A stretch of DNA of 64,000 nucleotides from Opitutaceae bacterium (GCA_035415285.1 DAOOFR010000001.1:14732-78731), one strand, 5' to 3'. Positions 2,295 through 33,889 are shown, counted from the first letter of the stretch. Numbers and translations: made by a program. Notes: generated from the letters alone by a model not told the origin.

Positions 2295-4376
2295 ATGGCT
2301 CGTACCCTTCGTTCAATGACTCGCTCCGGCCCGGCTTCGCGGTTGATCTCCTGTGTGCTGGTGTTGCTTGCCGCGCCGATCCGGGCCGGCGAGGAGACCG
2401 TGGTGCTCGACGACTTCCCGGTTCGGGCGGAGCAGGCCGGCGGGGCTGCCGGTGCGGTGGGGCGCGAGCGCATCGCGGTCCACAAGCCGCTCGACCTGGC
2501 GGATGTGCTCGCGCGGGAAGTCGCGGCGGTGTCGCTCGTGCGCAAGGGTCCGCTGGGCGGAGATTTTCTCCTGCGGGGGCTGGGCCGCGACAACCTCCGC
2601 ATCTCGCTCGACGGGATCACGGTCCATGGGGCGTGTCCGAACCGGATGGATCCACCGGCGTTCCATGTGAGCTCGCAACAGGTCGCGGCGGTGGCGGTGC
2701 GGCGCGGGCCGTTCGATGTCGAGGACGGCGGCACCGTCGGCGGCACGATTCGTGTGGGTACTTTGCCGTGCTGCGACACGCCGCAGGCGCTGGCGGCATT
2801 CGTCGGCTCGTTCGGCTACCGTTCGGCCTCGGGCTCGATGCGGACGCATGCCGGGGAGACCACGCTTTCGGCGAGCGCGGCGTGGCAGCAGGGTGGCGTC
2901 TACGCGGATGGGATGGGACGGCGCTTCACCGAGTTGCTAGGACTCAACTACCGGGCCGGGGCGCGCGAGCGGACCGCCTTCGAGGTGATGCAGGCCGAGG
3001 GGAAGCTGAGCACGTTCCTCGGTGCAGGCATCCTCGATCTGCGCGGTGGCTATCATCGCGCCACGGATGTGCTCTATCCCGGGTTGCGCATGGACGCGCT
3101 GCTCGACGAGTCGTGGCGCACCGGGGCCACGTGGACATGGCAGCCCGCCGGCAACTCCGCCGTCCGCAAGCTGGTGGTCGAGGCGTCCGCCAGCGGCGTC
3201 TATCACGACATGCGCGACACCTGGCGGACGAGCGCGGCGGCGGCGACCTGGGCGGCGCGTGGCTGGATGATGCGCACCCAGGCGCGCACGACGGCGGCGA
3301 AGCTGCGCGCTACGGCCGAGACCGCGGTCGGGGACTGGACGGTGCGCTATGGGGCGAGTGTCGAGCGCCGCGGTTGGGATGCCGACAATCGCGTGGGCGC
3401 CCGTGCCAACGACATGTTGCCCGATGTGGTGGCCGACACCGCGGGGGCGTATGTGCTGGGGGCGCTGGATCGCGGCGCCTGGGGGCTCGAGATGGCGGCG
3501 CGGCTCGATGTCGCGAAGAGTCGTGCGCGGGGCGATCTCGCGTTCGTGCGGGCTGCGCACGGACTTGGCGACGAGAGGGGGAGGAACGATACGCTGCCGG
3601 CCGCCTACGTACTTGGCCACCGGATGCTCGGTGCGGCGAAGATCTATGCCGGGCTCGGGCATGCCGGGCGGGCGCCCGACCCGCAGGAACGTTACCAGAA
3701 TCTCGACCATCCTTCCGCGGGCGACTGGGTGGGCAATCCACGGCTCGGGCCGACGCGCGCCACCGAGGTGCAGGTCGGCGCCGCTGTGCCGGTCGGCGCC
3801 TGGACGGTGCGCGCGAGTGCGTTCCATTCGTGGTTGCACGACTACATCTACCTCGCGCGGTTGCTGCCGGCACCCGGATCGACGGCGAACCCGGCCAATA
3901 CGAAAACGTATGTCGGCCTCGACGCCCGTTTGCTGGGCGGCGATCTCACCGCCACCTGGCAGCCGACGTCGCGCTGGTCGCTCGATCTCGGAGTGGCGGC
4001 GCAGCGTGGGGTGAAACGGGATCCCGCCGCGGGCAACGCGAGTCGCGTGCTCGGCGAAGTCCCCGCCGTGCAAGCGCGGTTGGCGGTGCAGTGGAGCCCC
4101 GCGCCGTGGGCGGTGCGGGTGCAGTGGCAGGGAGCCCCACGGCAGGGGCGCGTCGATCCGGGAATCGGGGAGCGGCCGGTGGCGGGGTGGGGTACGGTCG
4201 CCGTGACGTTGGCCTGGAAACCGCGCGAGTCGGTCGAACTCTTGGTCGGGGCGGAGAACCTCTTCGATCGCGCCTACACGCTGCACAACGCCTACACCCG
4301 CGATCCGTTCGCGGCCGGCGTCGCGGTGCCGGAGCCGGGGCGCTTCCTGTTCGCCCGTGTTTCCTGGCGGCGGTGA
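2295..4376 (+). CDS. TonB-dependent outer-membrane receptor
   Basis: 693 aa. Signal peptide LISCVLVLLAAPIRAGEE, a plug-like N-terminus (VVLDDFPV...) and a C-terminal beta-barrel ending NLFDRAYTLHNAY...EPGRFLFARVSWRR. Confidence 0.85.
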   Translation: MARTLRSMTRSGPASRLISCVLVLLAAPIRAGEETVVLDDFPVRAEQAGGAAGAVGRERIAVHKPLDLADVLAREVAAVSLVRKGPLGGDFLLRGLGRDNLRISLDGITVHGACPNRMDPPAFHVSSQQVAAVAVRRGPFDVEDGGTVGGTIRVGTLPCCDTPQALAAFVGSFGYRSASGSMRTHAGETTLSASAAWQQGGVYADGMGRRFTELLGLNYRAGARERTAFEVMQAEGKLSTFLGAGILDLRGGYHRATDVLYPGLRMDALLDESWRTGATWTWQPAGNSAVRKLVVEASASGVYHDMRDTWRTSAAAATWAARGWMMRTQARTTAAKLRATAETAVGDWTVRYGASVERRGWDADNRVGARANDMLPDVVADTAGAYVLGALDRGAWGLEMAARLDVAKSRARGDLAFVRAAHGLGDERGRNDTLPAAYVLGHRMLGAAKIYAGLGHAGRAPDPQERYQNLDHPSAGDWVGNPRLGPTRATEVQVGAAVPVGAWTVRASAFHSWLHDYIYLARLLPAPGSTANPANTKTYVGLDARLLGGDLTATWQPTSRWSLDLGVAAQRGVKRDPAAGNASRVLGEVPAVQARLAVQWSPAPWAVRVQWQGAPRQGRVDPGIGERPVAGWGTVAVTLAWKPRESVELLVGAENLFDRAYTLHNAYTRDPFAAGVAVPEPGRFLFARVSWRR

Positions 4377-5040: not shown

Positions 5041-5346
5041 TTACTCCTTCCGGGCGGGCACGGCCGGCGCCGGGGCGAGCACGCGCAACGCGCGGCCGCG
5101 CACCAGCGCCTCGGCGACCTTCATGCGGGCGCGGCGCACGATGCGATCGAAGGTCTGGCGCGACACCCGCATGCGTTTCGCCGCCTCGGTGTGGTAGAGG
5201 TCCTCCACATCGGCCAGTCGCAGCGCCTCCAGTTCGTCGGCGGCCAGCTCGATCTCCTGGAGTTCGCACAGCGGGATGCCGGCCGGCTTGAAGTACGAGG
5301 CCGGCGGACGGTGGGCGATGTGGCGAGGGCAGCAGGGACGGGGCAT
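5041..5346 (-). CDS. DUF134 (UPF0251) family predicted DNA-binding protein
   Basis: YFKPAGIPLCELQEIELAADELEALRLADVEDLYHTEAAKRMRVSRQTFDRIVRRARMKVAEAL matches the DUF134 pattern (FKP.GIP, a sigma-70 region-4-like HTH). N-terminal Cys pair MPRPCCPR. Divergent from the NifX-like gene. Confidence 0.8.
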   Translation of the reverse strand: MPRPCCPRHIAHRPPASYFKPAGIPLCELQEIELAADELEALRLADVEDLYHTEAAKRMRVSRQTFDRIVRRARMKVAEALVRGRALRVLAPAPAVPARKE

Positions 5347-5350
5347 GGTG

Positions 5351-5392
5351 GAAAAGCGGGCTTGTGTGCGGCGCGGTTATGGGCATAAGCCC
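5351..5392 (+). promoter_or_regulatory. Conserved promoter/operator block; core GTTATGGGCATAAGCCC at 5376-5392
   Basis: The exact 12-mer GTTATGGGCATA recurs at 13041 and, on the reverse strand, at 33856. The upstream part GAAAAGCGGGCTTGTGTGCGGC is shared with 13015-13040. It lies between divergent genes 5041-5346(-) and 5499-5933(+). Confidence 0.6.
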
Positions 5393-5498
5393 ATTACCGC
5401 ATGAACTGCAATCCGCAACGTCCCGACTCTCGGCGCGGCCCGCGCCGCGGGCGAGCGTTTTGCGGGGGCCTGAGCACCTTCAACCCGCACCGCTTCCC

Positions 5499-5933
5499 AT
5501 GATCATCGCTCTTCCGCTCACCGAGAACGACGAGTTCTCCCCTCATTTCGGCGCCGCCGCCAAGGCGGCCCTGTTCGAGGTCGATCCCACCGCCCGGATG
5601 ATCCTGCGCACGACGCCCGTTGTGCCACCCGACCCCGAACCCTGTGGCTGGGCCGCCTGGCTCGGCGCGCAAGGAGTCACGCACTTCCTCGCCGGCGGCA
5701 TGGGCCGCGGCGCCCAGCAGCGAATGGCCGCGGCCGGCATCCTGGTGACGGTCGGCGTCGCGCCGGCGGCTCCGGCCGACCTTGTGCAGGCGTATCTCGA
5801 CGGTTCGCTCGCCGCGGGCGCCAATGCCTGCGAGGGCGGCCACCACGAGCACGGCGAACACGGTCACCACCACCACCATCATGGCGAACACGGCCACGAA
5901 CACGGACACCACTGTGGTTGCGGCGCCCACTGA
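5499..5933 (+). CDS. NifX/NifB-C-terminal (dinitrogenase FeMo-cofactor biosynthesis) domain protein with a His-rich tail
   Basis: MIIALPLTENDEFSPHFGAAAKAALFEVD...HFLAGGMGRGAQQRMAAAGI fits the NifX/NifB-C fold pattern. The C-terminus is GGHHEHGEHGHHHHHHGEHGHEHGHHCGCGAH. Start moved to ATG 5499. Confidence 0.8.
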   Translation: MIIALPLTENDEFSPHFGAAAKAALFEVDPTARMILRTTPVVPPDPEPCGWAAWLGAQGVTHFLAGGMGRGAQQRMAAAGILVTVGVAPAAPADLVQAYLDGSLAAGANACEGGHHEHGEHGHHHHHHGEHGHEHGHHCGCGAH

Positions 5934-6375
5934 GGCCGCGCTGCGCGCCCATTGCGCGCAGCAGCATGCCGCCTGTTTCGCCTGCCGGCCCGCCGACCGC
6001 GGCGGGCTCGGGCTCGCTTTCGCCGTGCAGACGGACGGCTCCGTCTCCGCCGAATGGACCTGCCCGCCCGGCGGCGAAAGCTACGCGGGCATCGTGCACG
6101 GCGGCCTGCTCGCCACGGCGCTCGACAGCGCGATGGTGCACGCGCTGTTCGCGCGCGGCGTCGTCGCCCGCACCGGTGAACTTACCGTGCGCTACCGGCA
6201 GTCGGTGCGGTCGGGCAGCCCGGTCACCGTGACCGCGCGCCATCGCAGTGCCTACCCGCCGCTGCATCACCTCGAGGCCGAAATCCATCAGGCCGGCGTG
6301 CTCTGCGCCCGGGCTCGTGGCAAATTCATGGCGATCGAGAACGACTCCGGAGCCGAACCCAACCTCCCGCAATGA
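5881..6375 (+). CDS. PaaI/hotdog-fold acyl-CoA thioesterase (start uncertain)
   Basis: YAGIVHGGLLATALDSAMVHALF...GELTVRYRQSVRSGSPVTVTA is the typical PaaI-family core. Possible starts are ATG 5881 or GTG 5914/5917. The stop overlaps the panD start (ATGA at 6372). Confidence 0.7.
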   Translation: MANTATNTDTTVVAAPTEAALRAHCAQQHAACFACRPADRGGLGLAFAVQTDGSVSAEWTCPPGGESYAGIVHGGLLATALDSAMVHALFARGVVARTGELTVRYRQSVRSGSPVTVTARHRSAYPPLHHLEAEIHQAGVLCARARGKFMAIENDSGAEPNLPQ

Positions 6376-6737
6376 ACGCCCAACCGACCACCTTCCGCAC
6401 GCTGCTCAAGTCCAAGATCCACCGCGCCACGCTCACCGGCAAGGAGCTGAACTACGAGGGCAGCATCGCCATCGACCGCCTGCTGATGGACGCCGCCGAT
6501 CTTGTCGCCGGCGAACAGGTGCACGTGCTCAACCTCAACAACGGCTCGCGCCTGATCACCTACGTGATCGAGGCCCCCGCCGGCTCCGGCACCATGCTGC
6601 TCAACGGCCCGGCCGCGCGGCTGGGCGAGACGGGCGACCTGGTTGTCATCATCTCCTACGCACAGGTGGCGGAGCCCGCCGTCGCGGCGTACCGCGCCCG
6701 GATCGTGCAGGTCGATCCGGCCAACCGGCTGCGCTGA
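6372..6737 (+). CDS. panD: Aspartate 1-decarboxylase
   Basis: LLKSKIHRATLTGKELNYEGSIAIDRLLMDAADL contains the self-processing Gly-Ser site (YEGS). 121 aa, the typical PanD length. Confidence 0.95.
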   Translation: MNAQPTTFRTLLKSKIHRATLTGKELNYEGSIAIDRLLMDAADLVAGEQVHVLNLNNGSRLITYVIEAPAGSGTMLLNGPAARLGETGDLVVIISYAQVAEPAVAAYRARIVQVDPANRLR

Positions 6738-6758
6738 CTCCCGGCCGGGGCGATTGCG

Positions 6759-7613
6759 ATGAAGACCTCGCTCGACTGCCTGCCTTGCCTCCTGCGCCAG
6801 GCCACCGAAGCCATCCGGCTCGGCGCCAAGGACGAGAAGGTCGACGTCATGGTCGTGCGCGAACTGCTCCTGGCGAGCACGACGCTCGACTTCGATCAGC
6901 CGCCTCCCTCGCTCTCCGGGGCGTTGCAGGCGCAGTTGCGCGAGATCACCGGCTGCGCGGACCCGTACCGGGAGGCGAAGCAGCGCTTCAACCGGCTCGC
7001 GCTGGAGCTCCTGCCGCCGCTGGCCGCGGCCGTCGCGCGCAGCGAGGATCCGTTCGGCGCGGCGGTGCGGCTGGCGATCGCCGGCAACATCATCGACCTC
7101 GGGGCCAAGAGCGGGCTCACGGAGGCCGAAGCGCGTAGTGCCGCCTCCGGTGCACTCGCCCAGCCGTTGGTCGGGCCGCTGGCCGCGCTCCACCGCGCCT
7201 CGCGGCACGCCCACCGCATCCTCTACCTCTGCGACAACGCCGGCGAAATCGTCTTCGACCGCGTCCTGATCGAGCAACTGCCGCGCGGGCGCGTCACCGT
7301 GGCCGTGCGCGGGCAGGCCGTGATCAACGACGCCACCCGCGAAGACGCCCTCGTCGCCGGGCTGCCGGAGGTCGCCGAGGTGATCGACAACGGTTCGGCG
7401 TTGCCCGGCACCGTGCTGGTCGACTGCTCACCGGAGTTCCGGCGCCGCTTCGCCGAGTCCGATCTCGTGATCGCGAAAGGACAGGGGAACTTCGAGTCGC
7501 TTCACACCGAGAGCGCGCCGCTGTTCTGTCTGTTCCGCGTGAAATGCCCGACCGTGGCCGACCGCTGCGGTCACCCCGTCGGCAGCCACGTCATCTGGCA
7601 GGCGTCGCGATAA
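6759..7613 (+). CDS. DUF89 (ARMT1-like) metal-dependent damage-control phosphatase family protein
   Basis: N-terminal DCLPCLLRQA, internal CDNAGEIVFDRVLIE and AKGQGNFESL motifs characteristic of DUF89. Confidence 0.85.
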   Translation: MKTSLDCLPCLLRQATEAIRLGAKDEKVDVMVVRELLLASTTLDFDQPPPSLSGALQAQLREITGCADPYREAKQRFNRLALELLPPLAAAVARSEDPFGAAVRLAIAGNIIDLGAKSGLTEAEARSAASGALAQPLVGPLAALHRASRHAHRILYLCDNAGEIVFDRVLIEQLPRGRVTVAVRGQAVINDATREDALVAGLPEVAEVIDNGSALPGTVLVDCSPEFRRRFAESDLVIAKGQGNFESLHTESAPLFCLFRVKCPTVADRCGHPVGSHVIWQASR

Positions 7614-7645
7614 GCCCCGTTGCGGTCGACTGAGTCCGAACCGAC

Positions 7646-7846
7646 ATGCCCACAACTCGTCAATCAACGCGTGTCGACCAAGCGTTGGCGGAAGTCTGCC
7701 GGAACTGCCCGGTGTGCCGGCGCGCCCGAGCGCGACAACGCGGCGCGGCCTTCCAGTTCGTCCAGAAGATCGAAGGGCGAGCCTGCCCGTTTTGCCGGGC
7801 CTACGAGCGAGTCACCGGACACAAAGCCCACGAGCGGGTCTCCTAA
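7646..7846 (+). CDS. Small Cys-rich (zinc-ribbon-like) protein, hypothetical
   Basis: 66-aa ORF with CRNCPVC ... CPFC. Third-position G/C is enriched and it is co-directional with its neighbours. No recognised family. Confidence 0.4.
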   Translation: MPTTRQSTRVDQALAEVCRNCPVCRRARARQRGAAFQFVQKIEGRACPFCRAYERVTGHKAHERVS

Positions 7847-7981
7847 ATTTCCACCATCATTCTTTTCCATCCCCGCGCGCCGATCCACCGCGCGCACGCG
7901 AAGCCAAGGCCACGCCGATCCGGCCCCTGCATGCCGCGGATTGGCTTGGAACAGCGCCCCCCCTGAATCAAACCGCTTCCG

Positions 7982-8353
7982 ATGCCCATCCAGACCCACG
8001 CCAAACTCGTCTTTCGTCGCCCGCCGCACCGGCTCAACTGCGCCCAGGCGGTGCTCGACGCCTATCAGACAGTCACCGGGCACAGCGTCGCCCCGGTCGC
8101 GGACTTCAAGCCTTTCGGCGGGGGCCGCGCCGCCGGGGGCGAGTGCGGCGCGCTCTATGCCGCCTGCCAGGCCGCGCCGTCCTCCGCCGCGGCCATCCGC
8201 GCGGCCTTCGCCGCACGCACCGGCACCACGCTCTGCCGCGAACTCGATGCGTTGCCCTGCGAGGAGTGCGTGGCGCTGGCCGCGCGGTTGCTCGCGCAGC
8301 TCCACTCCGACGTTCGGACCGCCCCCTCCTCTCCTACCCCAACCAAACCATGA
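7982..8353 (+). CDS. C_GCAxxG_C_C family putative redox-active protein
   Basis: NCAQAVLDAY ... GGGRAAGGECGALYAA resembles the C-GCAxxG-C-C signature. The stop overlaps the next start (ATGA at 8350). Confidence 0.6.
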   Translation: MPIQTHAKLVFRRPPHRLNCAQAVLDAYQTVTGHSVAPVADFKPFGGGRAAGGECGALYAACQAAPSSAAAIRAAFAARTGTTLCRELDALPCEECVALAARLLAQLHSDVRTAPSSPTPTKP

Positions 8354-8727
8354 CGAACATCCCCGATACTGTACGCGCCGCGTGGACCGACCACGACGGC
8401 CCCATCGTGCTCACCACCATCGACGGCGCCGGCGTGCCCAACTCCATCTACGCGACTTGTGTGCGTGAATACGACGCCGCGACCATCGTCGTCGCCGACA
8501 ACTACTTCAAGAAGACCCGCGCCAACATCCTGGCCGGCTGCCGCGGCGCCTTGTTGTTCATCACGAAGGAGGGGAAGTCCTACCAGCTCAAGGGCCGCAT
8601 CGAGTACCACACCACCGGTCCGGTTTTCGACGACATGAAGACGTGGAATCCCGCCAAGCATCCCGGAGTCGCGGCGGCGGCGCTCAAGGTCGAGCAGGTC
8701 TACTCCGGCGGGGAGCAACTGGCGTAA
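8350..8727 (+). CDS. Pyridoxamine 5'-phosphate oxidase-like FMN-binding split-barrel protein
   Basis: GPIVLTTIDGAGVPNSIYATCV...VVADNYFKKTRANILAG...ALLFITKEGKSYQLKG fits the PNPOx-like fold pattern. A paralog lies at 16200-16577. Confidence 0.7.
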   Translation: MTNIPDTVRAAWTDHDGPIVLTTIDGAGVPNSIYATCVREYDAATIVVADNYFKKTRANILAGCRGALLFITKEGKSYQLKGRIEYHTTGPVFDDMKTWNPAKHPGVAAAALKVEQVYSGGEQLA

Positions 8728-12774: not shown

Positions 12775-13014
12775 CGTCGCACAAGCGGCACCTGGCGGCC
12801 GCTCCGTTCGGGGGCCAAGCGCGCCCACCTGCGGGGCGGGCGGCAATCGCACCAAGCGAATCAGGTCACCAGACCGCTGCACCAACGCCGACGGCCCGTG
12901 AGCGCCGCAGCGGGACTTCCTCCGCACCGCGAAGGGGGGGGGACACAAACCGCGCCCCGCGCTTGGACGAAGCGCGCTGGGCGCCGTGGGCGGAGGACGG
13001 GGTCTCCAGTTCGC

Positions 13015-13057
13015 GAAAAGCAAGGCTTGTGTGTGGCTCTGTTATGGGCATATGCTC
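13015..13057 (+). promoter_or_regulatory. Conserved promoter/operator block; core GTTATGGGCATATGCTC at 13041-13057
   Basis: About 43 nt alignable with 5351-5392 (GAAAAGCAAGGCTTGTGTGTGGCTCTGTTATGGGCATATGCTC). Located upstream of the NifX-like operon that starts at 13356. Confidence 0.6.
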
Positions 13058-13355
13058 ACAACAAGATGGATCCTACTCCACAACTGTCGCGGTGCCAGCC
13101 GACCGGGACCGGGGATCGAGCGTATTGCTCGGCGCCGGCCGCGGAAGCGGGGTTCGTCCGCGTTGGGCCCACCCGGGCGGGTCCCCGGACGAGCCGGCGC
13201 GCCCGCCCCCGTGAACCGTTCCTTTCGCACCACCATCCCGAACCCGAGGGGCGGCAGGACAGGCCCCGCGGGCGCCTGGGCCCCGGGCCGGCTTGCCTTT
13301 TGCTAAACCGTCAACCGCGGTCGAACGGCCGCCTCTCCCATACTTGTATCCACCC

Positions 13356-13721
13356 ATGAAGATCGCCATTCCACTCACCGCCGGTCGCCTGAGTTCCCAT
13401 TTCGGACATTGCGAGCAGTTCGCCCTCGTCGAGGTCGACCGGATCGCCGGGAAAATCTCCGGTCAGTCCCTTGTCGTTCCGCCTCCGCACGAGCCCGGGT
13501 TGTTGCCGCGCTGGCTCAAGGAGCGAGGCGTGCAGGTCGTCATCGCGGGTGGCATGGGGCGCCGGGCCCTCGATTTGTTCGCGGAGAACGGGATCGCCGT
13601 GCATGCCGCCGGCGCGGACTCGGCCCTCGAGGGGCTCGTGCCGGCTCTTCTCCAGGGAGCCCTCGGCGACGAGAAGCCAACCTGCGGGCACGACCACGAG
13701 CACACGCACTGCACCTCATGA
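13356..13721 (+). CDS. NifX/NifB-C-terminal domain protein with a His/Cys tail
   Basis: MKIAIPLTAGRLSSHFGHCEQFALVEVD...VVIAGGMGRRALDLFAENGI. The tail is CGHDHEHTHC. Paralog of 5499-5933. Confidence 0.8.
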   Translation: MKIAIPLTAGRLSSHFGHCEQFALVEVDRIAGKISGQSLVVPPPHEPGLLPRWLKERGVQVVIAGGMGRRALDLFAENGIAVHAAGADSALEGLVPALLQGALGDEKPTCGHDHEHTHCTS

Positions 13722-14077
13722 AGATCGCCCTAACCATGGAGGGGCCGGAAGCCGACGCGGCGCTCGACCTGCGCTTCGGCCGCGCCCGTTGTTTCAGAAT
13801 CATGGATTCGTCCACCGGGAAACAGACCTGTGTCGGGAATTCCGCCGGGGTGGACGCCGCGCAGGGCGCCGGCACGCAGGCCGTGCAAACGTTGGCGCGC
13901 CTCGGCGTTCAGGTCGTCATCACCGGGCATGTCGGTCCCAAAGCGTGGACCGCGCTCCAGGCCGCCGGCATCCGCGCCTATTCGGCGGCACAGGGCACCC
14001 CCGCCGAGCTCGTGGAGGACTTCACGGCCGGGCGACTTGTCGAGATCGGAGGGGCCGACCGGCCGGGCCACGGTTGA
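13718..14077 (+). CDS. NifX/NifB-C-terminal domain protein
   Basis: MKIALTMEGPEADAALDLRFGRARCFRIMD...VVITGHVGPKAWTALQAAGI. The start overlaps the previous stop (ATGA). Confidence 0.8.
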   Translation: MKIALTMEGPEADAALDLRFGRARCFRIMDSSTGKQTCVGNSAGVDAAQGAGTQAVQTLARLGVQVVITGHVGPKAWTALQAAGIRAYSAAQGTPAELVEDFTAGRLVEIGGADRPGHG

Positions 14078-14183
14078 GCACCGCCACCTCGCCTTGCGGC
14101 GTCAGGCCACCGGTGCGGCGGTGCCCCTGTGGTTGCCCCGACTCCGCGGCCGGCTTCAGCGCCGAAACCCGAAATCTGATACC

Positions 14184-14351
14184 ATGACACTCCAGAGAGA
14201 GCGAACCGGTCTGCTCGAACAAGGCCCGGTGGGCCGGGGCCGGTGGACCGGCGGCATGAGGCCGGGAGTGGACCGCGGTCGGGGCCGTGCCCTGGCGCGG
14301 CGCGGCGCCTGGCCCGCCCACCCGACGAAACCACAGCGGACCTGCCCATGA
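14184..14351 (+). CDS. Tiny Gly/Arg-rich protein, possibly DUF5320-like
   Basis: 55 codons, MTLQRERTGLLEQGPVGRGRWTGGMRPGVDRGRGRALARRG... Its stop overlaps the ATG of the next gene (ATGA at 14348), which suggests translational coupling. The DUF5320 similarity is from memory and is weak. Confidence 0.35.
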   Translation: MTLQRERTGLLEQGPVGRGRWTGGMRPGVDRGRGRALARRGAWPAHPTKPQRTCP

Positions 14352-15226
14352 AGATTGTGATCGCCAGCGGCAAGGGCGGCACGGGCAAGACCACCGTCGC
14401 GACCAATCTGGCCGCGACCATCGCCGGTCGCGGTTGGACCGTGACCTATGTGGATTGCGACGCCGAAGCGCCCAACGGGCATCTTTTCCTGCACCCAAGG
14501 ATCGAGGACACCGAGGCGGTCGATCGTCGCGTCCCCCTGGTCGATCCCAACCTCTGCCTGCATTGCGGCGCATGCGCCGAACTGTGCCGTTTCAACGCCA
14601 TCCTCTGTCTGCCCACCCACACGGTGATCTACGCCGAGTTGTGCCACAGTTGCGGCGGTTGCGCTCTGGTCTGCCCGGCGAACGCGATTCGCGAGGAGGC
14701 CCGCCCGATGGGACGGGTGAGCCGCGGCGCAGCGGGGCCGGTGCGGTTCGTATCCGGCACGCTCGACGTGGGCGAGGCCAACAGCCCCCCGGTGGTGCGC
14801 GCGGCGAAGTGCGCCGCTCCGGCTACGCAATGGACCATCCTCGACGCCCCGCCCGGCACCAGTTGCCCGATGATCGAGACCGTGCGCGATTGCGACTATG
14901 TCGTGCTGGTGACGGAGCCAACGCCGTTCGGGCTGCACGATCTGCGCCTGGCGATCGCCGTGGCCCGTTCGCTCGGCCGCCCCTGCGGTGTCGTAGTGAA
15001 CCGGGCACGGCCCGAGGCGGGCGAAGCGCGGACGCTTTGCGCCGAGGAAGGCGTGCCGCTTCTGGCGGAGATCCCCGAGGACATCGCCATCGCCCGGGCC
15101 TACGCGCGCGGGCGGCTTGCGGTGGAGTGCGTGGACGGCCTGCGGGCGCTCTTCGAGAACTTGTACCGGAGCTTGGAGACAGCCGGCGGCGTGCCGGCGG
15201 CCGGCGAACCGGAAGGACGGCCATGA
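14348..15226 (+). CDS. MinD/ParA-superfamily P-loop ATPase with a 2x[4Fe-4S] ferredoxin insert (COG1149-type)
   Basis: Deviant Walker A SGKGGTGKTT. Ferredoxin motifs CLHCGACAELC and CHSCGGCALVCP. Start at ATG 14348. Confidence 0.9.
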   Translation: MKIVIASGKGGTGKTTVATNLAATIAGRGWTVTYVDCDAEAPNGHLFLHPRIEDTEAVDRRVPLVDPNLCLHCGACAELCRFNAILCLPTHTVIYAELCHSCGGCALVCPANAIREEARPMGRVSRGAAGPVRFVSGTLDVGEANSPPVVRAAKCAAPATQWTILDAPPGTSCPMIETVRDCDYVVLVTEPTPFGLHDLRLAIAVARSLGRPCGVVVNRARPEAGEARTLCAEEGVPLLAEIPEDIAIARAYARGRLAVECVDGLRALFENLYRSLETAGGVPAAGEPEGRP

Positions 15227-16146
15227 ACGACAAATTTCCGCTTTACGAACTGGTCGTGCTCAGCGGCAAGGGCGGCACGGGCAAGACCTCGGTCACGGCG
15301 TCGCTCGCGGTGCTGTCCGGCGGTCGGGCGGTTTTTGCCGACTGCGATGTCGACGCCGCCAACCTCGAGTTGGTCCTGGGGCCGACGCTGCGCGAGCGCG
15401 CCTCGTTTTCGGGAGGCGAGCGGGCGGTCGTCGATCCCGGGCGCTGCACGGGCTGCGGCAGGTGTGTCGAGTTGTGCCGGTTCGGCGCCATCGAGTTCGC
15501 CGCCGGGCCGGACGGGCGGCGGGTCGCCCGGATCGATCCGCCCGCCTGCGAGGGCTGTGGCGTGTGCGAACGGCTCTGCGCGGAGCGGGCGATCTCGATG
15601 CAGCCGGTGGACGGCGGTGCGTGGTTCGTCTCCGACACGCGGCATGGTCCGCTGGTCCATGCGCGGCTGACGCCCGGGCTGGGAAACTCCGGGAAACTGG
15701 CGACGCAGGTGCGCGAGCGGGCGCGACGCGAGGCGCGCGCGCTGGGGCGGCCGCTGGTGCTGGTCGACGGCCCTCCCGGGGTGGGCTGCCCGGTGATCGC
15801 CACGCTCACCGGCGCCAGCCAGGTGCTGGCCGTCACGGAGCCGACCCCCTCGGGCGAACACGATCTCAGGCGCCTGCTCGAGCTGTGCCGGCATTTCCGG
15901 ATACCGGTTTGGGTGTGTCTGAACAAGGGCGACCTGTTCCCGGAGCTGGCGGTCCGGATCGAGGCGCTGGCCGCCGAGTTCGACGCGAGGTGCGTGGGCT
16001 CGATCCCGTTCGATCCGGCGGTGACGGCGGCGCAGCGTGCGGCCTTGGCGACGGTCGAGCACGGCGACGGCCCGGCGGCGCGCGCGCTCGTGGAACTGTG
16101 GGGGCGATTGTCCCCCTTGTTGCCCGGCGGTCGGCCGCCCGGTTGA
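15223..16146 (+). CDS. MinD/ParA-superfamily P-loop ATPase with a 2x[4Fe-4S] ferredoxin insert (second copy)
   Basis: SGKGGTGKTS, CTGCGRCVELC and CEGCGVCERLC. The start overlaps the previous stop (ATGA at 15223). This is the real part of track ORF 14287-16146. Confidence 0.9.
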   Translation: MNDKFPLYELVVLSGKGGTGKTSVTASLAVLSGGRAVFADCDVDAANLELVLGPTLRERASFSGGERAVVDPGRCTGCGRCVELCRFGAIEFAAGPDGRRVARIDPPACEGCGVCERLCAERAISMQPVDGGAWFVSDTRHGPLVHARLTPGLGNSGKLATQVRERARREARALGRPLVLVDGPPGVGCPVIATLTGASQVLAVTEPTPSGEHDLRRLLELCRHFRIPVWVCLNKGDLFPELAVRIEALAAEFDARCVGSIPFDPAVTAAQRAALATVEHGDGPAARALVELWGRLSPLLPGGRPPG

Positions 16147-20415: not shown

Positions 20416-22086
20416 TTACGGTGCGGGCAGTTTTGCCGGAGAACGCGGATCGATGGTGGCGCGAAGGCCGCCGGTGAGCGATTGCACGAGGAAACCGCGC
20501 TGGGCGAGAATGCGCGCGGCGAAGTAGGAGGTCTTGCCGAGGGCGCAGACGGTCACAACCGGGCGGCCCTTGTCGAGTTCGCCGCAGCGCTGGCGCAGGA
20601 CGGCGAGCGGGATGTTGATCGTGCCGCGGCGCGGGATGGGGTGCTTAGAGGCGAGGTCGGCCGGGCGGATGTCGACGATCTGCACGGCGGGATCGTCGGG
20701 CAGCGAGTCCACGGGATCGAGCAGGCCGTCGCGGGTGTTGCAGGCGGCCAGACCGGCGAGGTTCACGGGATCCTTCGCGGAGCCGAAGGGCGGGGCGTAG
20801 GCGAGCTCGAGTTCGGCGAGGTCGTCGATCGCGAGCCCGCCCGCGATCGCTGTCGCCATGACATCGAGACGCTTGTCGACGCCGGCCAAGCCCGTGGCCT
20901 GGGCACCGAGCACCCGGCCGTCCGCCGGGTCCCAGAGCAGCTTGAGCATGAGCGGCTGCGCGCCGGGATAGTAGCCGGCGTGGTGGTTGTCGTTCACCGT
21001 CACCGTGCAGTAGTTACGGCCGGCGACACGGAGCCGCTTCTCGGACCAGCCGGTGAGGCCGGCGGTGACGCCGAAGGCGCGCACGATCGCGGTGCCGAGC
21101 GCGCCGGGGAGCGGCTTCATCGCGGCGGGGCGGAAGATGTGGTCGGCGACGGCGCGCCCCTGGCGGTTGGCGGGGCCGCCGAGCGGCACCGCGCAGGTGT
21201 CGCCGGTGACGAGATCGCGAACCTCGATGGCGTCGCCCGCGGCGTAGATGTCGGGGTCATTGGTGCGGAGGTATTCGTCGGTGCGAATGTGGCCGCGCGG
21301 GCCGAGCTCGAGGCCGGCCGCCTTGGCCAGCGCGGTGTCGGGCCGTACCCCGATGGCGAGCACGACAAGGTCGGCGGCGAGGGAGCGGCCGGACTTGAGC
21401 TGGCAGGCGAGTGCGCCGCAGGCGGGGGCGAAACCGGCGATGGCGTCGCCGAGGTGGAGCTGCACGCCGTGGCGTCTGAACTCGTCCTCCATGAGCAGTG
21501 TCATGGGCCGGTCGAGCGGCGGCAGGAGCTGGTCGAGCAGTTCGACGAGGGCGACCTCCTTCTTGAGGTGCACGAACTGCTCGGCCATTTCGAGGCCGAT
21601 GAAGCCGGCGCCGATGACGACGACTTTCTGGGCTTCGGTGACGGCGGTCTTGATGCGGTCCATGTCGCCAAGGGAGCGGAGCGTGTGGATGCGTGGGTCG
21701 TCGATGCCGGGGAGCGACGGGCGCAGCGGCGCGGCGCCGGGTGCGAGCACGAGCTTGTCGTAGGGCAGCCACTCCTCGGCGCCGGTGGCGAGGGTGCGGA
21801 GCTGCACGCGTTTGCCTGCGCGGTCGATGGCGACGGCCTCGGTGCCGGTGCGGGCGTCGACGTTGAGCAGCGCCCGCAGCGACTGCGGCGTGTGGATGGC
21901 CAATGCGTTGCGTTCGGGGATCTCTCCGCCGACGTGGTAGGGCAGGCCGCAGTTGGCGAACGACACGTCGGGTCCGCGCTCGATCAGGGTGATCTGGGCG
22001 GCTTCGGAGAGGCGACGGGCACGGGCGGCGGCGGTGGCGCCGGCGGCGACACCGCCGATGATGACAAGACGGAGCGGGTTGGACAT
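20416..22086 (-). CDS. CoA-disulfide reductase / NADH-dependent persulfide reductase-like flavoprotein fused to a rhodanese domain
   Basis: FAD motif IIGGVAAGATAAARA, redox Cys SFANCGLPYHVGG, NAD motif VVIGAGFIGLEMAE and a C-terminal rhodanese active-site loop VVTVCALGKTS. Confidence 0.9.
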   Translation of the reverse strand: MSNPLRLVIIGGVAAGATAAARARRLSEAAQITLIERGPDVSFANCGLPYHVGGEIPERNALAIHTPQSLRALLNVDARTGTEAVAIDRAGKRVQLRTLATGAEEWLPYDKLVLAPGAAPLRPSLPGIDDPRIHTLRSLGDMDRIKTAVTEAQKVVVIGAGFIGLEMAEQFVHLKKEVALVELLDQLLPPLDRPMTLLMEDEFRRHGVQLHLGDAIAGFAPACGALACQLKSGRSLAADLVVLAIGVRPDTALAKAAGLELGPRGHIRTDEYLRTNDPDIYAAGDAIEVRDLVTGDTCAVPLGGPANRQGRAVADHIFRPAAMKPLPGALGTAIVRAFGVTAGLTGWSEKRLRVAGRNYCTVTVNDNHHAGYYPGAQPLMLKLLWDPADGRVLGAQATGLAGVDKRLDVMATAIAGGLAIDDLAELELAYAPPFGSAKDPVNLAGLAACNTRDGLLDPVDSLPDDPAVQIVDIRPADLASKHPIPRRGTINIPLAVLRQRCGELDKGRPVVTVCALGKTSYFAARILAQRGFLVQSLTGGLRATIDPRSPAKLPAP

Positions 22087-22095
22087 GGGGGAGAT

Positions 22096-22130
22096 CGGTA
22101 GGCGGTGGGCGGTGAACTGTGGACCGTAGG
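22096..22130 (+). repeat. Short heptamer array (CGGTGGR family), 5 units
   Basis: cggtagg cggtggg cggtgaa ctgtgga ccgtagg. It starts 10 nt from the start codon of the reductase gene (22086, minus strand). Confidence 0.6.
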
Positions 22131-22195
22131 TCGGTTTGAGACCGGATGCGTGGGGTGAATGATAGGACTGCGGAGAGCCGGGCTGAAGCGCCGCG

Positions 22196-22519
22196 CTATT
22201 TGGGCAGGTTCGAGCCGAGCCAGGTGCGCACGGAGCCTTCGGGCATGGAGCCGCTGAACTCCGCCGCGATCTGACCGGCGTGGAAGAGCTTCACGTTCGG
22301 GATGCCGCGGATGCCGAACTGCTCGGCCAGCTCGGGGTGGAGATCGACGTTGACCGTGACCAGCGACCAACGGCTGGCCGCCTCGCCGGCGAGCTTCTCG
22401 AGGACGGGTTTGAGCGAGCGGCACGGGCCGCACCAGGGCGCCCAGAAGTCGACCAGCACCGGCACGGTGCGGCTGCGCTCAAGGACATCGGCGGAGAAAT
22501 CGGATACTTCGTGGTTCAT
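22196..22519 (-). CDS. trxA: Thioredoxin
   Basis: 107 aa with VLVDFWAPWCGPCRSLKP, the canonical WCGPC active site. Confidence 0.9.
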   Translation of the reverse strand: MNHEVSDFSADVLERSRTVPVLVDFWAPWCGPCRSLKPVLEKLAGEAASRWSLVTVNVDLHPELAEQFGIRGIPNVKLFHAGQIAAEFSGSMPEGSVRTWLGSNLPK

Positions 22520-26628: not shown

Positions 26629-27387
26629 TCAGTGCCGCAGCGAGTGGACCAGAACGATGGTTCCGATGCCGGCGCCGATTCCCGCCAGTTGGAGAACCGT
26701 CGCGGCGAGACGTGGGTGGGTGCGGTGGTCGGGCGTGAGATCGGCGAGCGCGATGTAGAGGAAACTCGCGGCGGAAACCGACAACGCGTAAGGGGCGAGA
26801 TCGTCGATACGGCTGCCGGCCCAATAGGCCACCAGTGCGCCGGGGATTGTCGTGAGGCTCGCCAGCAGGTTGTAGAGCATGGCCCGCTTCCGCGGCCAGC
26901 CGTGATGGACGAGGATCATGATATCCCCGATCTCCTGGGGGATCTCATGGGCGATCACGGCGAAAGCCGTGCCGATGCCCAGCGCCCAGGATTGCTGGAA
27001 GGCCAACGCGATGGCCATGCCGTCGATCGCGTTGTGCACGGCGTCGCCGACCAGGATGAGCGGACCGGTCTGGGCGTGCGCCCGGCAGTCGTGTTCGTGG
27101 CAATGGCGCCACACCAGCAGTTTCTCGAGCACGAAGAACCCGACGATGCCGGCGAGCACGGTGCCGAGAACGCGCGGCGCCGGAAGCTCCGCCAAGGCAT
27201 GGGGAATCATCCCGAGAAACGCGGCCCCGAGCAGGGAGCCGGTGGCATAGCTGAGCACCGCGGTCTTTAGACGGGTCGAAAACTCGCGCCTCACCCGAAA
27301 CAGGACGCCGGCGACGAGCACGGCGCCAACGCTGCCGAGCAGGGAAAAGATGAGGATAAGCGCGAGGGTCATGGGCGAGCGCGCCAC
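26629..27387 (-). CDS. ZIP family divalent-metal transporter (ZupT-like)
   Basis: HNAIDGMAIA and the signature AHEIPQEIGD. About 8 TM segments and a His-rich loop HCHEHDCRAH. Confidence 0.9.
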   Translation of the reverse strand: MARSPMTLALILIFSLLGSVGAVLVAGVLFRVRREFSTRLKTAVLSYATGSLLGAAFLGMIPHALAELPAPRVLGTVLAGIVGFFVLEKLLVWRHCHEHDCRAHAQTGPLILVGDAVHNAIDGMAIALAFQQSWALGIGTAFAVIAHEIPQEIGDIMILVHHGWPRKRAMLYNLLASLTTIPGALVAYWAGSRIDDLAPYALSVSAASFLYIALADLTPDHRTHPRLAATVLQLAGIGAGIGTIVLVHSLRH

Positions 27388-27426
27388 TAGTTGTTGCAGA
27401 CGGTAAAGGACTGCTGCGTTCGCCGG

Positions 27427-29319
27427 TCAGAATTGCGACAACAGACCGACGCGGACGCGCCGGCCGGGGGCGGTGAAGCCGATGGCCTCCGCGTAGCGCT
27501 GGTCGAGCGCGTTGTCGAGGGCGGCGGTAAGCGCGCAGTGCTTGGTCATCCTCCAGCGGGCGGAGAGGTCCGCCCGCGCCCAGCCGCCGACCAAGCGAGC
27601 CCCGGTCGGCTTCGCGGAATCCGGGAGGTCGCTGCTGGCCGTGAGCCGGGCTTCGAGCACGAAGGTGGGCACCGGTGTCCACGTGGCGGAGACTCCGCCG
27701 CGCCACTCCGGGCGGCAACGCAGGCGTTCGCGGCCGGGCGTGCTGTGTCCGTTCGTGTAGGTGAGCGTGCCGCCGACCGCGAGGGTGTCGCAGGGCCGCC
27801 AAGTCGTGGTGAGCTCGGCTCCCCGGCTGTGGATGCCGCTGCGGTTGACGAGACGCCCGAGCACCGGGTCGTAGTCGACGCCGTCGCGGATACGGGAGGC
27901 GAAGCCGGTGAGATCGACGAGCAGGCGCCCCTCGGCGAAGGCCTGCCGCAGGCCGGCATCAAGCGAGCGCGCGCGCTCGGGTTTCAGCTCCGGATCGCCG
28001 ACGAGCGGGTTGGCGAGGGCGTAGAAGCTGGCGGGCTTGAAGGACGTGCCGGCGTTGACGCGCCACTGGGTGGCGGACCCAATCAGGCCGAACAGGCCGG
28101 CGCGGTAGGTGCCGCGGGTTGCGCCGGTGTCGTAATGATCGACGCGGGCTCCACCGACCAGGGTCACGGACGGGAGGAGCTTGCCGCTGGTCTCGGCGTA
28201 GGCACCTAGCCGATCCCGGTCGGTGGCGTAGGCGGTGGGCAGGATCATCGCACCGTAGTCGATTGAGCCGTTGCTGGTCCCCTGTTCGCGCTGGGCGTCG
28301 ACACCCACGGCGGTGGCCCAGCCTGAAAGGTTGTGTTCGTACCCGAGCGAGGCGCGATAGCGGCGCAGGCGGGTGTCGTCGGTGCTGGGGGGCACGGCGT
28401 CGTAGGGGTTGTCGGCGGGCGCGAGGACGCCGGGCGAGCCGACCGTGGCCTCAAACTGGGCGGCATCGGCGCTGGCAGTCCAGCGCCCGGCACCGGCTTC
28501 GCCATCGAGGCGGACGGACCCGGCGGTCTGCCGGTTCTCGCGATGCTCGAGGTCGCGTAGCACGGCGTATTCGATCCCTCCGCTCTCGTCGGGAAACGAG
28601 TCGGCCTCATGCCGCAGGTGCCAGAGTGAAACCTGGAGATTGGTCGAGCCGAGTCGCGTGGCGAATGCGCCCCGGGCGACGCGGCGTTCGGCGCGGCTGC
28701 CGGCGGCCAAGGAACCGTCGTCGGCGCCGGCGACGCCGACGTGGAGGGAGGATGCTCCGTCGCCGAGCACACGGCTGGCCCCCAGAGCAGCCCGGCGGAA
28801 ATCGGTCCCGCCAGCATCGACCAGCATGGCGGCTTCGTTGGTCGGGGCGGATTGGCCGCCGAGGTGGAGTGCGCCGGCAAGGATGTCGGGGCCGTAGCGG
28901 ACGGAGGCGGCGCCGGAAACGACGGCGGCCGAGCGCAGCAGGGCCGGCTCAAGCGTCGCGAGATCGACGGCGCCGCCGCGGTTGTTGGTCGGATCGTTGA
29001 GCGGGATGCCATCGAGGAAGACGGCCGTGTGGTTCTCCTCGCCGCCGCGCAGGTAGAGAGTCGAACGGCCACCGGGACCACCGGGCTGGTCGACGACGAG
29101 ACCGGGGACCGAGTGGAGCAGGCCCGCGAGATCGGTGGCGGGCAGCGCCGCCGCGTCGGCGGTGACGATGCGCACGGAGGCGGCACGTTCGTCGGCGCCG
29201 GAGGGATGGGCGAGGACCGGGAACGGGTCCAGCAGCACGACCGGCGTGGCGGCGGACTGGGCCAGCGCGGAGCCGAGCGCGAGGACGGTGAGCGGGAGAA
29301 GGGGGCGTAATGAATTCAT
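27427..29319 (-). CDS. TonB-dependent outer-membrane receptor
   Basis: Signal peptide MNSLRPLLPLTVLALGSALAQS, a plug region (LLDPFPV...TLYLRGGEENHTAVFLDGIPLNDP) and a C-terminal ...VRVGLLSQF. Start moved to the in-frame ATG 29319. Confidence 0.85.
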   Translation of the reverse strand: MNSLRPLLPLTVLALGSALAQSAATPVVLLDPFPVLAHPSGADERAASVRIVTADAAALPATDLAGLLHSVPGLVVDQPGGPGGRSTLYLRGGEENHTAVFLDGIPLNDPTNNRGGAVDLATLEPALLRSAAVVSGAASVRYGPDILAGALHLGGQSAPTNEAAMLVDAGGTDFRRAALGASRVLGDGASSLHVGVAGADDGSLAAGSRAERRVARGAFATRLGSTNLQVSLWHLRHEADSFPDESGGIEYAVLRDLEHRENRQTAGSVRLDGEAGAGRWTASADAAQFEATVGSPGVLAPADNPYDAVPPSTDDTRLRRYRASLGYEHNLSGWATAVGVDAQREQGTSNGSIDYGAMILPTAYATDRDRLGAYAETSGKLLPSVTLVGGARVDHYDTGATRGTYRAGLFGLIGSATQWRVNAGTSFKPASFYALANPLVGDPELKPERARSLDAGLRQAFAEGRLLVDLTGFASRIRDGVDYDPVLGRLVNRSGIHSRGAELTTTWRPCDTLAVGGTLTYTNGHSTPGRERLRCRPEWRGGVSATWTPVPTFVLEARLTASSDLPDSAKPTGARLVGGWARADLSARWRMTKHCALTAALDNALDQRYAEAIGFTAPGRRVRVGLLSQF

Positions 29320-29419
29320 GGGACTTGGGTTGCGCCTCGCGGTGGTCGCGCCGCAGCCGTCGCCCGGGCCTCGGCCGGGGAGGAAGCGGCCGACGACCCC
29401 AGGCACGGCCCGGTGGCGT

Positions 29420-31330: not shown

Positions 31331-31395
31331 GGAGTTTGCGGTGATTGCAGAGCGGAAAAGGTGGGGCGCGAGGCGAGGCGCGCTCGCCGGCGGCG

Positions 31396-33821: not shown

Positions 33822-33832
33822 TGACGCCGAGC

Positions 33833-33861
33833 GATAAACGGGCATATGCCCATAACGTCAA
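33833..33861 (-). promoter_or_regulatory. Operator/promoter: minus strand TTGACG-TTATGGGCATATGCCCG-TTTATC
   Basis: Contains the perfect palindrome GGGCATATGCCC (33840-33851) and the shared 12-mer GTTATGGGCATA. The palindrome fills a 17-nt spacer between -35-like and -10-like hexamers facing the COG0523 gene, and it lies between divergent operons. Confidence 0.6.
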
Positions 33862-33889
33862 CCCGAGATCCTCATCTGTCGCCACCGCC

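Follow-up and report, generated by a model that had tools for sequence, protein, structure and literature searches.

A palindrome conserved beside DUF134 genes as a candidate operator of this uncharacterised protein family

A short motif that recurs upstream of three groups of genes in an uncultured Opitutaceae bacterium (Verrucomicrobiota) raises the question whether its copies represent a common operator and, if so, which protein would bind to it and which genes would be controlled. We addressed this question for a contiguous stretch of 64,000 nucleotides (referred to as the window) with a G+C content of 69.5%. Based on the comparative analysis described below, we consider it probable that the motif is the operator of a transcription factor of the DUF134 family (UPF0251, PF02001), which is encoded at 5041-5346. 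This assignment rests on sequence comparison, and no binding data support it so far.

Results

Three palindromic sites in intergenic DNA

The 12-mer GTTATGGGCATA occurs in three exact copies in 64 kb, located at 5376-5387 and 13041-13052 on the plus strand and at 33845-33856 on the minus strand, compared to 0.00 copies expected from 100 dinucleotide-preserving shuffles. The count reported in a first-pass annotation of this sequence is thereby confirmed. The same annotation had proposed a search for the 17-mer GTTATGGGCATAWGCYC with mismatches allowed. Within the window, this search returned sites 1, 2 and 3 with 0 mismatches and, when 2 mismatches were tolerated, also sites 1 and 2 on the opposite strand. 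Since the 17-mer matches both strands at these two sites, the sites are palindromic, and each copy of the 12-mer turned out to constitute one half of an imperfect palindrome that spans 22 bp and has the consensus GTTATGGGCATATGCCCATAAC. As the site is a dyad, the orientation of the individual copies has little meaning, and the earlier proposal that each copy points toward its downstream gene was not retained.

These searches establish three sites, none of which is assigned to a strand: candidate operator site 1 at 5376-5397 (GTTATGGGCATAAGCCCATTAC, an imperfect palindrome of 22 bp), site 2 at 13041-13062 (GTTATGGGCATATGCTCACAAC) and site 3 at 33835-33856 (TAAACGGGCATATGCCCATAAC in plus-strand letters). 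Site 3 carries a perfect 12-bp core palindrome, and GGGCATATGCCC, previously noted at this copy as a perfect palindrome, is indeed present. In a scan of the whole window with a position weight matrix (PWM), the three sites scored 29.8-37.1 bits, while the next-best position reached 5.3 bits and the maximum over 20 shuffles was 17.1 bits. It should be considered that this matrix was built from the sites of relatives together with the three window sites and was thus partly trained on the sites scored. The scan revealed no fourth site in the 64-kb window and no copy of the palindrome within its coding DNA, which agrees with the initial observation that the 12-mer was seen only in intergenic DNA, where all three copies are found.

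Between 7 and 10 of the 11 possible pairs are symmetric in the window sites, and 3-11 of 11 across 17 aligned Opitutaceae-type sites, over which the core positions G6, G8 and C9 and their partners are invariant. Such a dyad symmetry of the 22-bp site fits binding by a homodimer, for which no binding data exist.

Gene context of the three sites

Gene context was derived from Pfam, NCBIfam, translation and gene calls on contigs of the identical strain (L002), and the gene labels previously assigned around the sites were confirmed and extended in this way. Site 1 is located in a 152-nt gap between the minus-strand DUF134/UPF0251 gene, the proposed regulator (5041-5346, 101 aa; Pfam PF02001, E = 3e-19), and a His-rich NifX-like gene on the plus strand, at distances of 30 nt to the DUF134 start codon and 102 nt to the start codon of the NifX-His gene. 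The latter opens candidate target operon 1 (5499-8727, plus strand; Pfam, gene calls on L002, translation), which comprises, all on the plus strand, the NifX-like gene with its His-rich tail (5499-5933), a 4HBT thioesterase (5881-6375), PanD (6372-6737), ARMT1/DUF89 (6759-7613), C_GCAxxG (7982-8353) and PNPOx (8350-8727).

Site 2 lies 294 nt upstream of candidate target operon 2 (13356-16146, plus strand; Pfam, NCBIfam, gene calls), an ORP-like operon with two NifX-like genes (13356-13721 and 13718-14077) and two MinD/CbiA-ferredoxin ATPase genes (14348-15226 and 15223-16146), all on the plus strand. Site 3 is centred in a 68-nt divergent gap between COG0523 (start 33821, minus strand) and def (start 33890, plus strand). 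On the COG0523 side, candidate target operon 3a (26629-33821, minus strand; Pfam, NCBIfam) contains the genes for the COG0523 GTPase (32805-33821), SufB (about 31396-32811), ThrRS (29420 to about 31330), a TonB-dependent receptor (27427-29406) and a ZIP transporter (26629-27387). These genes share a single strand and their order recurs in the related locus L011; the true extent of the operon is inferred, as are the extents of the other operons. On the opposite side, candidate target operon 3b (33890-36434, plus strand; Pfam, NCBIfam) encodes peptide deformylase (def, 33890-34393), an Mrp/NUBPL-type P-loop Fe-S carrier (34390-35259) and an aminotransferase (35256-36434). In the relative L140, the def-Mrp pair is likewise divergent from COG0523.

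In a comparison with NCBIfam MrpORP, the Mrp protein reached 345 bits against the P-loop half of the model, while its Di-Nase half was matched by all three NifX-like proteins; the MinD-ferredoxin ATPases resemble Orp3/Orp4. Based on these matches, the three loci encode the parts of an ORP-like system such as that of Desulfovibrio (PMC6345978), and the putative targets of the three sites are functionally coherent.

Site 2 lies in a duplicated regulatory region

A similarity of about 25 nt further upstream had initially been described for sites 1 and 2. This similarity is real; it extends over about 120-150 nt in a MAFFT alignment and reflects paralogy. The stretch at 13013-13130 (no strand assigned) aligns as a paralogue of the DUF134/NifX-His intergenic region (5350-5465), without a DUF134 gene, which accounts for the additional resemblance between the two sites. 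The site-2 region is most like the single regulatory region of L011. Judged by this alignment, the region harbouring site 2 is a duplicate of the DUF134 promoter region from which the DUF134 gene itself is missing. The DUF134-type promoter in this copy is directed away from the NifX genes. Control of the NifX operon from site 2 is the weakest link of the proposed regulon, because the site is 294 nt away and the promoter faces the other way.

Conservation at orthologous promoters

The closest named homologues of the DUF134 protein come from Opitutaceae and Lacunisphaera, and an identical protein is encoded in the MAG GCA_019136515.1 and in metagenome contigs. Orthologues were chosen by protein similarity only (L011, L013, L016, L018, L019 and the second strain L001); these Opitutaceae/Verrucomicrobiota proteins show 74-86% identity in the alignment. 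The palindrome was present upstream of DUF134 in 6/6 distinct orthologous loci, about 25-50 nt before the start codon, and its flanks are mostly divergent among these six loci. Overall, a palindrome at the position of site 1 was observed upstream of DUF134 in L001, L011, L013, L016, L018, L019, L020 and L031. It is kept in L013, even though the upstream neighbour is an alkaline phosphatase gene on the same strand, and in L019, even though the divergent neighbour is ARMT1.

A single 20-kb stretch of L011 combines the genes of all three window loci, with DUF134 divergent from 4HBT-PanD-NifX-NifX-x-MinD-MinD, and TonB receptor-ZIP-ThrRS-SufBD-COG0523 divergent from def. This stretch yielded two sites, located at DUF134 and at COG0523/def, respectively. 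Site 3 was followed through COG0523 orthologues chosen by protein similarity (L139-L145, 69-88% identity) and is kept upstream of COG0523 in L011 and in all of L139-L145. The hexamer abutting the site-3 dyad reads TTGACG in L011, L139, L140-L142 and L145, and TTGCCA in L143 and L144.

These alignments demonstrate that orthologous promoters retain the dyad despite diverging flanks, and they support the initial proposal of one operator common to three promoter regions. The paralogy of sites 1 and 2 over about 120-150 nt could instead suggest that the copies are non-functional leftovers of a dispersed repeat or of a segmental duplication. Site 3, however, has only the 22-bp dyad in common with the other two sites, the dyad remains at orthologous positions amid diverging flanks, and it recurs beside DUF134 in seven phyla among the matches listed (see below). 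With only 3 copies in 64 kb and none in the coding DNA of the window, we regard such an origin as extremely improbable.

At one operator position, L011-type genomes show GAGC/GCTC and the window GGGC/GCCC. Co-evolution of regulator and operator was considered for this difference and rejected, as the position is merely degenerate (R/Y) across phyla.

Promoter elements at the sites

The first-pass annotation had recognised the classic geometry of a repressor operator at site 3, with the palindrome filling the spacer between TTGACG and TTTATC. The layout itself is present: on the minus strand, the -35-like hexamer TTGACG (33857-33862) abuts the palindrome on the COG0523 side and is followed by a 17-nt spacer and TTTATC (33834-33839). 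The same register is found in relatives and in the Desulfobacterota loci L109 and L129 described below. A sigma-70 consensus scan, however, called no promoter at sites 1, 2 or 3, so that promoter overlap in this organism is proposed by analogy with relatives and other phyla; the promoter role of the hexamer, which was read from the sequence, is likewise inferred.

A second TTGACG (33821-33826, plus strand) faces def and is located 16 nt upstream of the site-3 centre CATATG (33843-33848). It was also read from the sequence, its -35-like function is an inference, and its GTCAATG context is kept in relatives. Near site 1, a TTGTGT element (5362-5367, plus strand) is placed 16 nt upstream of the centre CATAAG (5384-5389), and at site 2 the same distance of 16 nt separates its counterpart TTGTGT (13027-13032) from the downstream centre CATATG. 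All Verrucomicrobiota relatives share an invariant CTTG core in this element, among which the spacing between the element and the centre varies from 14 to 16 nt. We infer that TTGTGT is the -35 element of a divergent promoter. The conserved box GGCGAGCGTTTTGC was examined as a second operator, promoter or attenuator and discarded, as no consistent sigma-70, ECF-sigma or hairpin reading could be obtained.

The palindrome accompanies DUF134 genes in seven phyla

The pattern GRGCWYATGCCCATAAC, which fixes one half-site, was scanned in one genome per species (185,579 species) and matched at least 119 loci. Of the 118 scorable matches listed, those with at least 8 of 11 symmetric pairs were classified as palindromic and those with 7 or fewer as non-palindromic, and DUF134 was sought at the matched loci with phmmer and a purpose-built HMM. 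A DUF134 start adjoins the site in 21/31 palindromic matches listed, compared to 0/87 non-palindromic matches listed (Fisher p = 4.7e-16). The 21 matches listed that adjoin DUF134 belong to the Verrucomicrobiota, Chloroflexota, Desulfobacterota, Bacteroidota, Bacillota, Actinomycetota and Acidobacteriota. Further palindromic matches listed are located upstream of DUF5320, NifX-like and flavin-reductase genes. Within 2 kb of the palindromic sites listed, Pfam assigned DUF134 to 14 ORFs and Nitro_FeMo-Co to 11. Recurrent non-palindromic matches in Oscillospiraceae and Ruminococcus were rejected as sites because they fall into stop-free, apparently conserved coding sequence.

These counts establish the co-localisation of the palindrome with DUF134 genes across phyla. 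Based on this comparison, the site is deeply conserved and not restricted to the Opitutaceae lineage. The initial suggestion that the adjacent DUF134 protein is autoregulatory gains support from a motif that follows DUF134 genes across seven phyla, in the absence of binding data.

In two deltaproteobacterial-type loci of the Desulfobacterota (L109, L129), the DUF134 promoter is close to consensus and reads TTGACA-[TTATGGGCATATGCCCA]-TAACTA/TAACCT, and the operator forms the 17-nt spacer. Four loci of the Chloroflexota (L023, L062, L107, L131) and one of the Bacillota (L041) show a TTGACA-N17-TATAAT-like promoter with the dyad starting 1-6 nt past the -10 element. As the operator thus covers the spacer or the transcription start of strong promoters, repression is indicated; the choice between repression and activation remains an inference. 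A dyad between -35 and -10, as seen at site 3, L109 and L129, is also a feature of MerR-type promoters. In contrast to their spacers of 19-20 nt, the spacer at these three sites measures 17 nt, and a MerR domain is absent.

Regardless of the motif, we additionally picked five distant DUF134 loci by protein profile, four of which, all except L149, were evaluable. L147 showed two variant sites flanking a TTGACA...TATAAT promoter, and L150 a variant site with a half-operator in the promoter spacer. No recognisable site was detected within 4 kb of DUF134 in L146 (Thermoanaerobacter) and L148 (Sedimentisphaerales). Since these two loci lack a site, the motif is widespread in the DUF134 family but not universal.

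A perfect dyad could give a stem of 8-9 bp, and the palindrome might therefore function as an RNA or DNA structure, namely a hairpin in the 5' leader that serves as an attenuator, processing site or protein-binding stem-loop. Position 7/16, with four symmetric changes from G-C to A-T (L011, L016, L145), would be compatible with such a structure. Across 17 sites, however, we counted 46 one-sided changes but only 8 compensatory and 2 non-complementary double changes, a distribution that shows no conservation of base pairing. Many of the cross-phylum sites read GAGC...GCCC and are unable to pair, and the sites in L109 and L129, being located between -35 and -10, are upstream of the transcript. 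Moreover, no relevant Rfam match was obtained, either at gathering thresholds for the whole window or at permissive E-values for site 1, no T-run follows any of the three sites and no terminator was called there. Hence, a function as a hairpin appears highly unlikely, and we return to the palindrome as a DNA operator.

The DUF134 protein as the candidate binder

DUF134 contains a helix-turn-helix like that of sigma-70 region 4, with weak Pfam matches to Sigma70_r4/HTH_29. In the alignment of Opitutaceae DUF134 proteins, Cys6 and His12 in the N-terminal arm and the helix VSRQTFDRI are invariant. Across phyla, the recognition helix VSRxTFxR is nearly invariant (S62, R63, T65, R68), which matches, at the level of aligned residues, the invariance of the operator. 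In DUF134 proteins from other lineages, we observed a CxxC...CPxC motif at the C-terminus or a fusion to a NifX domain.

An AlphaFold2 model of the protein (mean pLDDT 74.5) gave its best Foldseek matches to region 4 of SigR/RpoE and to the DNA-binding domains of RcsB, DosR and EvgA, with E >= 0.6, 44-52 aligned columns and an rmsd of 1.5-4.9 A. Both these and the weak Pfam matches thus point to a resemblance to LuxR/GerE-type and sigma-70 region 4 helix-turn-helix domains, and GerE-type dimers bind dyads of about 20 bp, as proposed here for a DUF134 dimer. The fold matches of DUF134 are, however, not significant, and in contrast to both groups the protein has an additional N-terminal basic Cys/His arm and beta-strands; it has no receiver or ligand domain. 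Searching the PDB with the DUF134 sequence yielded neither a relative nor a solved structure for the family, and a DUF134 profile scan of viral contigs returned nothing. The family DUF134/UPF0251 (COG1342) comprises more than 7,800 proteins at E <= 1e-10. In the literature searched, which did not cover subscription journals, we found no functional study of DUF134, UPF0251, COG1342 or PF02001, or of the motif string.

The identity of the binder is inferred, and adjacency alone cannot separate autoregulation from the action of a trans-acting factor. The main residual alternative is that another, unidentified conserved regulator binds the palindrome and that DUF134 is its most conserved target. 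It could draw on the 10/31 palindromic matches listed that do not adjoin DUF134 and on the DUF134 genes without a site (L146, L148). Nevertheless, among the matches listed, DUF134 alone of all DNA-binding genes recurs beside the site in seven phyla with changing neighbourhoods, the Pfam tally around the sites listed shows no second recurrent regulator family, and the invariance of the operator has its counterpart in the near-invariant recognition helix of DUF134. We therefore judge an unidentified binder to be unlikely and favour DUF134 itself.

Comparison with Fur/Zur and orp regulation

The first-pass annotation had also named a Fur/Zur-type metalloregulator encoded elsewhere as a candidate binder, in which case the three loci would form a zinc or iron starvation regulon. 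COG0523, ZIP transporters, TonB-dependent receptors and His-rich proteins are typical members of Zur regulons, and the first three of these at site 3 together with the His-rich protein at site 1 are grouped here under one operator in a similar way. Beyond this gene content, the proposal gained no support. Fur/Zur boxes are AT-rich 7-1-7 or 9-1-9 inverted repeats, whereas the core TGGGCATATGCCCA is G+C-rich. A Fur-family domain was not detected in a non-exhaustive scan of about 50 window ORFs, and no Fur-family gene recurs near the sites listed in other phyla. In contrast to Zur regulons, neither the motif nor its candidate regulator is related to the Fur family, and elsewhere the motif accompanies DUF134/NifX genes instead of zinc-uptake genes among the matches listed, with NifX/MinD/DUF5320 as the core of the regulon. 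Binding by a Fur/Zur protein is thus very improbable in our assessment, and DUF134 remains the preferred candidate.

The orp operons of Desulfovibrio vulgaris Hildenborough, which encode the Orange Protein complex, are reported to be under the control of sigma-54, OrpR and IHF (PMC6345978, PMC8359166, PMC3897727). Similar to orp, the window encodes NifX-like proteins of the Di-Nase type, MinD-like ATPases containing two ferredoxin motifs, and an Fe-S carrier of the Mrp/NBP35 type (PMC6345978). Unlike in orp, the Mrp and Di-Nase domains of the window are separate proteins, and control apparently occurs via the DUF134 dyad at sigma-70-like promoters, which is inferred. Near the three sites, no match to the sigma-54 -24/-12 element (TGGCAC-N5-TTGC) was found within 2 mismatches, and in the window as a whole such matches are no commoner than in shuffles. 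No Sigma54_activat gene was detected among the window ORFs scanned, and no enhancer-binding protein is adjacent.

Discussion

The proposed regulation can be outlined as follows. A DUF134 homodimer would bind the 22-bp dyad composed of GTTATGGGCAT and ATGCCCATAAC, whose half-sites are 11 bp apart; this corresponds to one helical turn and would place the dimer on one face of the DNA. The dyad would be recognised via the invariant sigma-70 region 4-like helix-turn-helix (VSRxTFxRI), possibly with additional contacts between the basic N-terminal arm (MPRPxCPR) and the AT-rich flanks. As the sites overlap core promoter elements, which is itself inferred, binding would block RNA polymerase. At site 1, repression by DUF134 would affect its own gene as well as the divergently oriented NifX-His operon, and at site 2 the ORP-like NifX-NifX-MinD-MinD operon. 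At site 3, the COG0523-SufB-ThrRS-TonB receptor-ZIP string as well as def-Mrp-aminotransferase would be repressed; since -35-like hexamers are present on both sides, a single dimer could shut both divergent promoters.

The most speculative step concerns the signal, which would act via Cys6 and His12 or via a NifX-like partner. Cys6/His12, the CxxC...CPxC motif and the fused NifX domain suggest that it is probably a metal or an iron-sulfur/metal-sulfide cluster; this is inferred from residues and domains only and remains speculation.

HrcA-CIRCE, Rex-ROP and NrdR-NrdR box are widely conserved pairs of an autoregulated repressor and its operator. With these pairs, the putative DUF134 system has in common a palindromic operator of about 20 bp, whose sequence is nearly constant over several phyla and which overlies core promoters both of the operon encoding the regulator and of a small, functionally coherent regulon. 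It differs in the protein family and the operator, in the lack of biochemical or genetic evidence for DUF134 and in the fact that a site was not found at every DUF134 gene sampled. As an autoregulated repressor with its operator, the system would be of an ordinary kind; new are the uncharacterised, widespread family and the unusually deep conservation of its operator.

As a broader and only tentative hypothesis, which we would not yet back against its alternatives, DUF134 may be a widespread metal- or cluster-responsive sensor-repressor of anaerobes. With GTTATGGGCATATGCCCATAAC kept near-unchanged across at least seven phyla, it would control ORP-like NifX/MinD/Mrp/DUF5320 genes, and in Opitutaceae its regulon would have grown to include COG0523, SufB, ThrRS, the TonB-dependent receptor, ZIP and def-Mrp. 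Sensing would take place through variable Cys/His modules, i.e. the N-terminal arm, CxxC...CPxC, or a fused or partner NifX.

If our inference holds true, a DNA-binding specificity and a regulon could be assigned to the DUF134 family, together with a physiological theme that is open to testing: the supply of metals and Fe-S clusters in anaerobes. The ORP-like NifX/MinD/Mrp system, whose function is poorly understood even in Desulfovibrio, would then become accessible through its regulation. Given its degree of conservation, the operator could directly serve as a probe for DUF134 regulons across thousands of genomes.

Promoter regions carrying the proposed operator

The NifX-NifX-MinD-MinD operon has a promoter region (window 13013-13130) that contains the second copy of the proposed DUF134 operator and is a paralogue of the region upstream of the DUF134 gene (5350-5465), here without an attached DUF134 gene. 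This promoter region looks like a remnant from the splitting of an ancestral single cluster, of a kind still present in L011, where the genes of all three window loci lie within 20 kb. The relic DUF134-type promoter in this copy faces the 3' end of the DUF3106 gene, and a weak hairpin is found at 12951-12976.

Besides the operator, the DUF134/NifX intergenic region contains another conserved box (GGCGAGCGTTTTGC, window 5450-5463), whose counterpart in the NifX-NifX-MinD-MinD promoter region is GATCGAGCGTATTGC (13114-13128). In the relatives, comprising the sister strain (L001) and four loci of Opitutaceae-type orthologues (L011, L013, L016 and L018), this box is located approximately 85-100 nt upstream of DUF134, and L013 retains it despite the absence of a divergent NifX gene. 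Readings of the box as a sigma-70 promoter, an ECF-sigma promoter or a hairpin were considered, and none was consistent.

At the distant DUF134 locus L147, the NifX-DUF134 promoter region (L147:3126-3453) contains a 220-nt tandem duplication with two operator-like sites per copy. The left half of one, GTTATTGACATATGCTCAAAAT, also serves as a TTGACA -35 element, while the other, GATTTAAACATATGCTCAAAAC, lies immediately downstream of TATAAT.

DUF134 proteins and neighbouring genes

Fusion to a NifX/Di-Nase domain is seen in some DUF134 proteins (Desulfobulbales, L035:7234-7944 and L048:2267-2992), and a C-terminal CxxC...CPxC motif (Pfam PF27353, MJ0401) is present in many others. Both are missing from the Opitutaceae proteins, in which Cys6 and His12 are nevertheless invariant. 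Between operator and DUF134, Chloroflexota have a conserved ORF, roughly 85 aa long, that is apparently the operon's first gene (L023:1990-2170; L062, ~3770-3930, minus strand; also L085, L107 and L131) and follows the pattern M.KIFVRER..G.G.PRF.IV.VEG.DL...RK.ELE..A..GAEIVYLPRG.

The window's NifX-like protein has a long C-terminal tail rich in His (HHEHGEHGHHHHHHGEHGHEHGHHCGCGAH, 5830-5933), reminiscent of the metal-binding tails in HypB- and SlyD-type metallochaperones. Further along, the sister strain encodes a Lactamase_B gene between ARMT1 and C_GCAxxG (L001:6794-7666); the window strain, like L002 (an identical-strain contig) and L004, has none at the corresponding spot (window 7614-7981). 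For a 282-aa ORF at 7620-8468, Pfam gave no match.

Redox and metal genes and the COG0523 leader

The window also encodes several radical-SAM proteins (36483-37469, 47340-48722, 49643-50755 and 51990-53369), two with B12-binding domains, a rubrerythrin-VIT1 fusion (37545-38516) and a thioredoxin/pyridine-nucleotide-disulphide oxidoreductase-rhodanese pair (20416-22519). Together these constitute an anaerobe-type set of redox and metal genes, from which the DUF134 site is absent.

In the region of the third proposed operator (window 33821-33862), the start context of COG0523, GTCAATG, is kept in relatives. Should TTGACG-17 nt-TTTATC be a genuine promoter, transcripts of COG0523 would begin with a leader of roughly 5-8 nt at most and would be nearly leaderless.
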